Origin: an uncultured Actinomycetota bacterium
Lineage (GTDB): Bacteria > Actinomycetota > Thermoleophilia > Solirubrobacterales > Solirubrobacteraceae
NCBI GenBank assembly: GCA_963830395.1
Contig: CAWHMI010000004.1
Coordinates: forward strand, 264,980 to 328,979
Direction of reading: 5' to 3'
DNA length: 64,000 nucleotides
Program-made: the position numbers and the translations under genes
Shown here: in pieces, positions 2,779-5,153 of the stretch
Numbering within the stretch: position 1 is the first letter of the stretch
Layout of the letters: each line of letters starts with the position of its first letter
Notes under the pieces: generated by a model
What the model was told of the DNA's origin: nothing
What the model saw: only the letters and a program-made list of their open reading frames with translations
Databases searched by the model: none

Positions 2779-2890
2779 CGCGCGACGCCCACGCCCGCGT
2801 GGAGCCGCCACCCGCGCGGACCCCCCGCCTGTGCGGACCCGCCACCGCCGATTGGCTCCGGGTGACGGCCGCGATGGCATACTCGCCGCC

Positions 2891-3322
2891 GTGGATGTCT
2901 CGCGTCGTCTCGTCGCCTGCCTGCTGGCGCTCGGTGCGCTCGCACTCTCGGTTCCCGCCGTGACGCTCGCCTCCGGCGGAGGCGGCTCCGCCGGGGACCA
3001 GCAGTACACCGATCCGTTCGGCGCCACCTCGACGCCGACGCAGTCCACCGCCCCGCCGCCCACCACCACGGCTGCCCCGAGCCCGCCGCCCGCCGCCTCA
3101 CCTACGACCACCAGCGCCCCTGCCCCCGCGGCCACGGGCACCGCCACCACCGGCGCGACCACCTCCAGCGCCCAACCCACCGCCACCACGGCGGCTGGCG
3201 CACCGGCGTCCAGCGCCGGTCAACTGCCGTACACCGGTTACGACAGCTGGCTGGCCGGCGCGTTGGGCCTGGGGTTGATAGCCGGCGGCCTCGTGCTCCG
3301 GTGGCGCGTCGGCCGCTCCTGA
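2891..3322 (+). CDS. Small Thr/Pro/Ala-rich secreted protein with an LPXTG-type (LPYTG) sorting signal
   Basis: Signal peptide MDVSRRLVACLLALGALALSVPAVTLA, T/P/A linker, then LPYTG + hydrophobic segment + RWRVGRS tail. Confidence 0.8.
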   Translation: MDVSRRLVACLLALGALALSVPAVTLASGGGGSAGDQQYTDPFGATSTPTQSTAPPPTTTAAPSPPPAASPTTTSAPAPAATGTATTGATTSSAQPTATTAAGAPASSAGQLPYTGYDSWLAGALGLGLIAGGLVLRWRVGRS

Positions 3323-3363
3323 GCCGCCCGCCCCTGAGCCGCCCGCTTTTGAACCGCCCGCCT
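3319..3363 (+). repeat. 15-bp tandem repeat x3 at the gene end
   Basis: ctgagccgcccgccc / ctgagccgcccgctt / ttgaaccgcccgcct. Confidence 0.75.
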
Positions 3364-3369
3364 CGACCT

Positions 3370-4120
3370 CAGCCGGCGCCGAGAAGTTCCGGTCGCCGGC
3401 GGGCTGGTTGGGCTGCTGGGGCCGGCAAGGCCTGAGGTGCGAGCGGGGCGGGTTCCCCGCCGCAGCTCAAGCTGGGCGACCGGTCAGGCGGAGGCGATCG
3501 GGCATGGATTGGGCAACAAATCCGGCTCCGGCTCGCGGGTTTGTCGAGAACAGCACGTTGAACGTGGAGTTGGTGGCAATCGCATGGGCGATCTCGGATT
3601 TGTGGCTAGCGCATACCCGATCGTTTCCGCGCCTCACCCAGAGCCGTCAGGGTGAAGCGATCGGCACGAATTAAGCGCCAAATCGTGATCCGGCTTCTGG
3701 ATTTATCGCGTTCTCCACGCTGTGCGCTCATCTGGTGACAAATCCAAATTCGCCAGTGTGAATTTGTCGCCTTAACCACCCTCGGCGGACGCTGCGGCGA
3801 AGCCCCCCTGCCCGGACTCGATCGCGGACTGCGACAGCCACGATCCGATTCGCGGCGAGCCTCGGTCGGGAAGTTCTGAAGCGGCTTGGGCGACGAGGGC
3901 TACCGAGCCGCTGGTAAACCAACAGGCGGAAACGATCGGGGATGCACGTGTGGCTTTTTCCAGGTGAGCCCCCTCAGGTTGCGCTCGGAGGGAGGCGGTC
4001 GCCGGAATGTGCCGCGCGGCGCGCGCCCCGACCTCAGTTGCAGGGCCGTGCAGACCCCGCAACTTTGCCCGACGCTCGGGACCTGGGCTGCGGGGCCCGT
4101 GAGGAACCCCGCAGCCACGC
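3370..4120. ncRNA. Candidate structured non-coding RNA or regulatory element (unassigned)
   Basis: ~800-bp gap between convergent genes with no convincing ORF, AT-richer patches, several stems (gcggcttgg/ccgagccgc, gttgc/gcaac, cccga/tcggg, ccctc/gaggg) and a repeated ~20-nt motif. Confidence 0.35.
4086..4116. terminator. GC-rich hairpin, probable terminator downstream of the DUF892 gene
   Basis: ggctgcgggg-N11-ccccgcagcc perfect 10-bp stem, 15 bp beyond the stop codon at 4131. Confidence 0.65.
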
Positions 4121-4130
4121 CTGCCGCCCC

Positions 4131-5153
4131 CTACGCGTTGCTGAGCTCGCGCTCGGCGGCCTTGAGGACGCCGGAGCGATTCTTGTGAGAGCGCTCGTAA
4201 TCGCGCGCCTGCTTGGTGTGATCATCGTCGGCGTCCGACATCGCGGCCCGCACCTCGGGCGCCGTCATCTCGTCGTACCCCGCCCACGGCTCGTCGCCGC
4301 GCAGGCTGTCCACGCGATGAAGGACCGTCGTCCGGTTCTCGTGAGCGCGCTCGTAGGTGTCGATCTTGGCCAGATCGATCTGTGACAGGCCCGGCAGCCT
4401 GCTGACGATCTCCTCGGCGGTGTGGCTGTCGTAGTCGGCGATCGCGAGGTCGCCCTCTCCGGCCAGGGCGCCCTTGACCTGTCCCTCCGCGTGTTCCACG
4501 CCCGGCACCCGGCGAGCCTGGCGCGCGGCGCGACGGGTGGCCGAGCCGGTCTTGCGAGCCGCCTGGCGAGTCGCGGCTCCGGCCTCGCGAACCGCGTCGG
4601 CAGCACCGGTGTCGGTGATGTCGTAAGACGGGTCACCGTCCACCTCGGCGCCGATGACGGCATCCGTCAACCGCGGAATCTCGCGGCGCACGCGCCCCAG
4701 CATCGCTTCCTCGTCAGCGAGGATGCCCTTGGCCAGCTCCGCCGTCTGGTCGTCGCCGACGACGCGGGCGAGGCGCTCGAGCGCGGTGTAGGTGGCAATT
4801 TCCAGGGCCTCGGTGGCGCAGGTGTCCTTCGCGTTCTTGAGCACCTTCTCCTCGCCTCCGGAGCCCCGCAGCAGATCCAGCGGCGTCTTTCCCAACGCCA
4901 CCGCCTGCCCCAGGACGTCCTCCCAGAAGCCCAGCACCGCTGTCACCGGGTTTGACGGGCCGCCCAGCTGCTTCAAGCGGCTGCCGACATCGGCGGAATG
5001 CCGTCGGGTCTCGCCGAGATGATTCTCCAGGGCGGACCGATAGGACCCTCGGGGGGTCATCGCGATCTGCGACTGCAGTATGCGGACGAGCGCGTCCTCG
5101 GACGCCCGCGCCTCGCTGAGGTACTGCACGACCTTCTGCTGATCGTTGTTCAT
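4131..5153 (-). CDS. DUF892/YciF-like ferritin-fold protein with two C-terminal YD-x-T...YE-x2-H-x-NR repeats
   Basis: YLSEARASEDAL...HLGETRRH...ATEALEIATY...ILADEEAM ferritin-like pattern, followed by two ~45-aa repeats. Confidence 0.8.
   Translation of the reverse strand: MNNDQQKVVQYLSEARASEDALVRILQSQIAMTPRGSYRSALENHLGETRRHSADVGSRLKQLGGPSNPVTAVLGFWEDVLGQAVALGKTPLDLLRGSGGEEKVLKNAKDTCATEALEIATYTALERLARVVGDDQTAELAKGILADEEAMLGRVRREIPRLTDAVIGAEVDGDPSYDITDTGAADAVREAGAATRQAARKTGSATRRAARQARRVPGVEHAEGQVKGALAGEGDLAIADYDSHTAEEIVSRLPGLSQIDLAKIDTYERAHENRTTVLHRVDSLRGDEPWAGYDEMTAPEVRAAMSDADDDHTKQARDYERSHKNRSGVLKAAERELSNA

Follow-up and report, generated by a model that had tools for sequence, protein, structure and literature searches.

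We found that the 20-nt motif GCGGARRCGATCGGGNATG, which recurs in both orientations in the window, is very probably the TIR of an IS1595-family IS circulating in Solirubrobacterales, with positions 3609-3948 as its non-autonomous MITE. The cluster of motif copies is a nest of mobile-element debris, in which an IS1595-family MITE and a solo element end lie in a module of the same family. The window is the whole 64-kb stretch of DNA analysed here, C4:264980-328979 of a 4.84-Mb assembly in 30 contigs that is 95.8% complete (C-numbers denote contigs of the window's genome, G000). Positions without a contig number are those of the window.

The motif and its surroundings

Direct reading and a pattern scan located exact copies of the motif at three positions, and a repeat search added a degenerate one:

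3488-3506, plus strand: motif copy 1, GCGGAGGCGATCGGGCATG
3612-3630, minus strand: motif copy 2, GCGGAAACGATCGGGTATG
3926-3944, plus strand: motif copy 3, GCGGAAACGATCGGGGATG
3644-3668, plus strand: degenerate internal repeat copy, of which 3644-3663 is 80% like 3481-3500

The earlier note had reported this +,-,+ arrangement together with a degenerate copy near position 3655, and both were borne out. No exact GCGGARRCGATCGGGNATG beyond these three copies was found in the 64-kb window. The repeat search returned the same complementarity that the note had given for 3611-3630 and 3926-3945 (19/20, 95%), and placed 3488-3506 and 3612-3630 at 16/19 (84%). The sequence ACAAATCCG, said to follow the first two copies after 8-9 nt, lies 9 and 8 nt past them and forms the inverted pair 3513-3524 / 3595-3606. 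The further inverted pair described within 3734-3771, ACAAAT(C/T)C, is present as 3734-3746 / 3759-3771.

The cluster sits in an 808-bp gap (3323-4130) flanked by the 3' ends of two convergent genes, where G+C falls to 0.58. The product of the upstream gene ends with an LPYTG sorting signal; downstream, the minus strand carries a gene of 340 aa. Six genomes of the same genus have orthologues of this 340-aa gene, at 54-68% identity. In these six congeners nothing around the orthologue was syntenic with the upstream gene or resembled 3323-4130. Because the orthologue neighbourhoods differ and the related genomes are too distant, the search yielded no empty site that is truly orthologous.

Several features of the flanking genes were recorded alongside. 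The upstream ORF (2831-3322, plus strand) has at its C-terminus QLPYTG, a hydrophobic stretch and the basic tail RWRVGRS, a sortase-type cell-wall sorting signal that is preceded by a Pro/Thr/Ala-rich linker. A 15-bp unit (CGCCCGCCCCTGAGC-like), repeated three times in tandem at 3306-3362, overlaps the stop codon of this gene, and the C-terminal end of the ORF before it, 1543-2778, consists of about five AARRLVHP repeats. On the other side of the gap, a perfect 10-bp G+C-rich hairpin (GGCTGCGGGG / CCCCGCAGCC) at 4086-4116 begins 15 nt past the stop of the minus-strand gene 4131-5153 and is probably its terminator, without a U tract. A second repeat similar to this hairpin lies at 4054-4075.

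The full-length IS in other genomes

An exact-pattern scan of species-representative genomes identified other Solirubrobacterales MAGs with the motif. Full-length copies of the IS were found in these MAGs; they are about 1 kb long, with a 308-aa transposase, 22-bp TIRs and 8-bp duplications. In one such MAG, L052, a 308-aa ORF lies between two motif copies in (-)...(+) order, spaced 983 bp from each other, within this element:

L052:3352-4357: full-length IS, 1,006 bp, with 22-bp TIRs AGTGCATACCCGATCGTTTCCG / CGGAAACGATCGGGTATGCACT and the 8-bp direct repeat AGATGCGT

The L052 ORF matches Zn_ribbon_IS1595 (PF12760; 48.1 bits) and DDE_Tnp_IS1595 (PF12762; 87.7 bits), and scores 179.7 bits against the NCBIfam model NF033547 "IS1595 family transposase", where the cut-off is 75. 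Its nearest annotated relative is WP_168581114.1 (61.6% identity over 99% of its length). The copy in L047 has an internal deletion and the duplication ACGTGAA(G/A), and in L046 and L050 the 3' end of the transposase gene runs into the repeat. The full-length copies in other MAGs were inserted at unrelated 8-mers.

Members of the IS1595 family usually have 8-bp flanking duplications and a Zn-finger as well as a DDE_Tnp_IS1595 domain (PMC8101967), and 8-bp repeats have been reported for a new member (PMC12561309). IS1595 is a family in ISfinder (Siguier, Gagnevin and Chandler 2009, as cited in PMC12561309). The IS that encodes WP_168581114.1, an annotated IS1595 family transposase, lies on the Rhodococcus sp. 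DMU1 plasmid NZ_CP050953.1 and has ends, GTGCTTATCCGGTTAG, that resemble GTGCATACCCGATCGT. Its ends have diverged, and it is a separate IS from which the copies in the window do not derive.

The MITE at 3609-3948

Compared with the L052 element, the middle and right motif copies are the two ends of a single short element bordered by a target-site duplication:

3609-3948, minus strand: MITE of subfamily 2, 340 bp, without a transposase gene; ends match the L052 IS ends
3609-3631, minus strand: MITE TIR, IRR-type (middle motif copy), corresponding to the L052 IS right end
3926-3948, plus strand: MITE TIR, IRL-type (right motif copy), corresponding to the L052 IS left end
3601-3608, no strand: left target-site duplication, TGTGGCTA, 7/8 against the right copy
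3949-3956, no strand: right target-site duplication, TGTGGCTT

The MITE is reversed relative to its parent, having the right-end type at 3609 and the left-end type at 3948. Its ends are almost those of the IS: 3926-3948 is identical to the L052 left end at 23/25 positions and 3608-3631 to the right end at 23/24. The 360-bp MITE of subfamily 1 at C23 matches the same IS ends at 23/23 and 27/29. The flanking TGTGGCT(A/T) of the window MITE is an imperfect duplication (7/8), with a one-base uncertainty as to the exact tip nucleotide. Sister copies have duplications of 8/8 at C23 (TGTCGCCT), C25 (TGGCGACA) and C7 (AGCGGACT), and the C14 copy has TGTTGCC(A/T), again 7/8. Comparison of the flanks of the C13 and C2a sister copies gave no matching target duplication.

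The element is repeated in the genome and has interrupted a site that persists uninterrupted elsewhere. BLAST of 3300-4150 against the genome found 3610-3934 to be 94% identical to C9:142641-142968 and 87% identical to C2:59469-59775. Paralogous copies of the four-arm module described below, at C10:18399-18540 and C22:114305-114440, are intact exactly where the window and C23 copies inserted. The empty site at C10 reads GGATTTGTCGGGTTTGCAGGTCGAGGCC and that at C22 AAATTTGTCGGTTTTTGCAGGTCGAGGCC, where the window has GGATTTGTGGCT, the 340 bp and then TGTGGCTTTTTCCAGGTGAGCC. The element thus has IS-matching ends, an 8-bp duplication, small size, no coding content, multiple copies and a paralogous empty site, as a MITE does. 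No Pfam match was obtained for the small ORFs in 3400-4190 and none inside the MITE, and 1-nt indels between the window MITE and the C9 copy break the ORFs.

A coding reading of the motif was also considered, in which a 41-57-aa ORF ends in ...ARKRSGM..., bears a faint likeness to a helix-turn-helix N-terminus and has a plausible continuation in another frame. It was ruled out by the lack of a Pfam match, by the indels between copies and by the occurrence of the same letters as IS ends.

The degenerate copy at 3644-3668 is what is left of an older end, taken up into the MITE along with the arm module that follows it. The homologous position at C2:59466 is occupied by an intact TIR that belongs to a neighbouring MITE.

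Like IS1595-derived MITEs, the window element is small (340-360 bp in this family), non-coding and multi-copy, with IS-type TIRs and 8-bp duplications. It differs from them in that its interior is not a simple deletion of the IS and holds an unrelated four-arm module, that no autonomous copy is in this assembly, and that insertions are biased to the arms of the family's own module, giving nested copies. The MITE retains both transposase-recognition ends but no transposase gene. In the mechanism that we propose, an IS1595-type DDE transposase, acting in trans, would bind both ends and move the element, leaving the 8-bp TGTGGCT(A/T) duplication. The window MITE inserted into a four-arm ACAAATCC module that is repeated locally, at its last arm.

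The solo end at 3488-3510 and its subterminal remnant

The left motif copy belongs to another, older copy of the element:

3445-3487, minus strand: subterminal remnant of an older truncated element copy (BLAST to C15 and C23)
3488-3510, plus strand: solo TIR, IRR-type, diverged, GCGGAGGCGATCGGGCATGGATT; 16/19 to the motif

Positions 3488-3510 read from inside to outside in the rightward direction, which makes them one end of an element that once extended leftwards. Beside this end, the window retains no more than about 45 nt of subterminal sequence. By BLAST, 3445-3514 is 84% like C15:182936-183009, 3462-3631 is 78% like C23:99101-99271, and loci in C10, C22 and C23 share about 80% identity with 3487-3603. 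The variant tip of the solo TIR, GGATT, is also found in C23, C10 and C22. A profile search showed that in C10 and C22 a whole reversed MITE stands before the same junction, and in C14 the equivalent end still adjoins the decayed 3' end of a transposase gene (21 aa, 71% identity). In the order of events that we propose, an older copy would have inserted next to the first arm of this module and later been truncated, leaving 3488-3510 as a solo end. The recurrence of this junction between end and first arm in the window, C23, C10 and C22 may partly result from copying of a composite unit rather than from independent site-specific insertions.

The four-arm module and insertion bias

An alignment of about 36 copies resolved the module into four arms of about 12 nt, in alternating orientation, around a conserved spacer. 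The consensus reads GCGCCAAATCC for the first arm (A1), GGGTTTGTCGCG for A2, CCACGCTGAGCGGCAGGCT for the spacer, GGTGACAAATCC for A3 and GATTTGTCACC for A4. Two modules lie in the window, one hosting the insertions and one inside the MITE:

3511-3607, no strand: host module of four ACAAATCC-type arms, broken at the last arm; aligned to C10, C22 and 30 other copies
3512-3523: host module A1, GGCAACAAATCC
3537-3548: host module A2, GGGTTTGTCGAG
3549-3571: host module spacer
3572-3583: host module A3, decayed
3596-3607: host module A4, GGATTTGTGGCT
3957-3975, no strand: host module tail, beginning TTTCCAGGTGAGCC; contiguous with A4 in the C10 and C22 empty sites
3674-3771, no strand: MITE-internal module, the most widely repeated part
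3674-3685: internal module A1
3699-3710: internal module A2, GGATTTATCGCG
3711-3733: internal module spacer
3734-3745: internal module A3, GGTGACAAATCC
3760-3771: internal module A4, GAATTTGTCGCC

Together the host module (3512-3607) and the MITE-internal module (3674-3771) explain every ACAAATCC that the earlier note had picked out. RNAalifold on 36 module copies paired A2 with A3 at weak energy and did not recover two simple hairpins. Several pairings among the four arms are possible, with support for no single structure. Short tandem repeats (GATCCGCG, CATCC and GGGTGATCCGCGTTGCGCGAGCC units) stand before partial modules at C12:411000-411130, C8:24100-24214 and C14:114900-115000, indicating that these left boundaries are microsatellite-like and not a transposon end.

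Insertions of the family are concentrated on the arms. An 8-mer with at most two mismatches to TGTCGCCT or TGGCGACA abuts 17 of 54 motif-like ends, against a background of 1.2% of all genome positions (binomial p ~7e-20). With respect to the arm, elements are inserted either way round, as seen in C23 versus C25; this agrees with a DDE transposase whose target preference is roughly palindromic (TGNCGNCA) and not with a site-specific recombinase. The module, which belongs to the same repeat family, is a strongly preferred landing site (consensus TGTCGCCW / TGGCGACA). As full-length IS copies elsewhere sit at unrelated 8-mers, the bias may be a hot-spot effect of the hairpin-prone arms in this genome and not strict specificity.

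The module might also be a species-specific, REP-like landing pad sought by both the IS1595-type transposase and an IS110-family recombinase, self-nesting and sparing genes; we regard this broader reading as possible but rather doubtful. Because the MITEs carry the module inside, each insertion would make new targets. If the reading is true, the MITE family would be self-nesting, with its insertions channelled away from genes.

Copy number and distribution

We checked how often the motif recurs in the genome, as the earlier note had proposed. Allowing up to two mismatches, there were 38 matches in the window's genome against 2 for the pattern read backwards, and a 21-mer version gave 25 against 0 for its control, indicating that the repetition is not due to chance. 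An nhmmer search with a subfamily-1 profile recovered 53 segments at about 40 loci, including at least 9 full-length 360-bp MITEs and many loci with only the central 130 bp. The +,-,+ layout is seen again at C23:99127/99252/99588, spaced by about 125 and 336 bp, and C14:234710/234776/235112 has a related one.

The family is confined to this lineage. The motif was absent from 59 of 60 related genomes, the remaining one having a single copy. A 31-mer spanning the spacer and A3 occurs 28 times in the window's genome and in none of the 60 relatives. The 335-bp element had no convincing match in 40 relatives, only weak partial ones. The single motif copy in the congener (G002, locus L033) was considered as a clue and discarded, being a lone intergenic end with no transposase gene beside it. 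At this locus (G002:C93:4408-7428, locus positions 1480-2080) the lone motif stands in a 700-bp intergenic stretch with repeated hairpins of its own (AAGCCGCATATGGCGGCT-type) and three copies of a 21-bp tandem repeat (CGCCCGCCACCCGGTCG), probably another repeat family.

No IS1595-family transposase was found in the window's 30-contig assembly by tblastn or with the NF033547 HMM. At C14:234616-234678 and in C8, the motif has decayed remnants of a transposase next to it. Diverged IS1595-family transposases are present in 6 of 60 relatives, at no more than 67% identity to the L052 protein. Either the family is orphaned in this genome or its autonomous IS is unassembled; a partner in the same genome is not required for MITE status. 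Multi-copy IS often fail to assemble.

Alternative explanations

The earlier note had proposed that a transcript over 3485-3945 acts as an RNA switch, its middle repeat pairing with either the left or the right copy to regulate a neighbouring gene. The repeats are indeed complementary at 16/19 and 19/20, and the stretch folds better than its shuffles (z = -2.15 on the plus strand and -3.56 on the minus strand), but excess folding energy of this kind is expected of any DNA rich in inverted repeats. The mutually exclusive pairing arises because three TIRs stand in +,-,+ order, and in other genomes these repeats bracket a transposase gene. With convergent 3' ends on either side, the stretch has no downstream gene to regulate, and no promoter-like or terminator-like site was detected in it. 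Rfam returned nothing better than E = 6 for it, and nothing meaningful for a subfamily-1 copy or the left end of the IS110-family element. The note had held that lack of conservation at orthologous loci would count against a switch, and as far as this could be tested such conservation is lacking: both the motif and the element are missing from 59 of 60 related genomes and from the surroundings of the orthologue in the six congeners. A switch is thus extremely unlikely, and we infer that the cluster has no regulatory role. An invertible segment, in which a site-specific invertase uses 3611-3630 and 3926-3945 as crossover sites to flip the intervening 295 bp, would account for 19/20 inverted repeats bracketing a short segment. 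There is however no recombinase gene nearby and no promoter-like site inside to be switched. Units flanked in the same way occur at at least nine other loci, with 8-bp duplications and empty paralogous sites, which argues for transposition and leaves inversion hardly plausible. The note's fallback, that the repeats are clustered protein-binding or recombination sites, proved essentially right, since the copies are the ends at which a transposase recognises and cleaves the element.

Two other kinds of mobile DNA were weighed against the IS1595 assignment. If the motif and the ACAAATCC arms were REP/BIME-like palindromes spread by a RAYT (Y1 HUH) transposase, copies would be clustered, alternating in orientation and intergenic, as they are, and the arm modules are imperfect palindromes that attract IS insertions as REPs do. 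Yet Y1_Tnp (PF01797) was not found in the window's genome, whereas 6 of 14 control genomes have it, IS1595 ends have the same sequence as the 20-nt motif, and 8-bp duplications are typical of DDE transposition. REP units are accordingly a very improbable account of the motif, and a REP/BIME-type origin may still apply to the four-arm module itself. REP/BIME elements are preferred IS targets, for example of IS1397 in enterobacterial BIMEs and of IS110-family elements in Pseudomonas REPs. The module resembles them in being intergenic, palindromic and hit by two unrelated systems, the IS1595-type MITE and the IS110-family IS; unlike them it has no RAYT, and it was found in one species of 61 genomes searched, both inside and outside MITEs. 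The motif could alternatively be the ends or the bridge-RNA region of the genome's IS110-family element, as at C25 an outward-facing motif pair brackets a 348-aa IS110-family ORF (DEDD_Tnp_IS110, Transposase_20). The three copies of that element (C25, C23 and C6) share only the sequence from CAGTGAGAGG to GGAGGCTTTGT, with the motif outside, and the C25 copy is nested in a 360-bp MITE at GCGGATTT^GTCACCAG. As the shared IS110 sequence ends well inside the motif pair, the motif belongs to the 360-bp MITE, and the IS110 reading has almost no chance of being correct. The TIR of an IS1595-family element remains our reading of the motif.

The IS110-family element

The genome carries three near-identical copies of this IS, each with a 348-aa DEDD transposase (C25:118627-119912, C23:46003-47330 and C6:64047-65048). 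All were inserted at GGATTT^GTC(A/G)C in ACAAATCC arms, those of C25 and C6 within 360-bp MITEs. The left end, 233 nt long, is predicted to form a long stem (z = -2.8) with an internal loop that contains GGAUU, the left half of the target, and GCGACAAA, the complement of the right half (GGATTT^GTCGC). This predicted loop resembles the target-binding loop of a bridge RNA or seekRNA; no Rfam family matched the IS110 left end.

Biological meaning

The riboswitch-like pattern of alternative pairing in the window comes from transposon ends, and in this respect the outcome is mostly a clean negative. The MITE family itself appears to be undescribed so far, and its biology is ordinary. Just two features are mildly unusual, namely the target bias, which is self-nesting, and the use of the same arms by an IS110-family element. 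Knowing this family and the IS from which it derives in uncultured Solirubrobacterales aids MAG annotation and can help to explain some assembly breaks and rearrangements. The insertion bias towards the arms of one module, shared with an IS110-family element, offers a small, testable case of target choice at hairpin-prone repeats.
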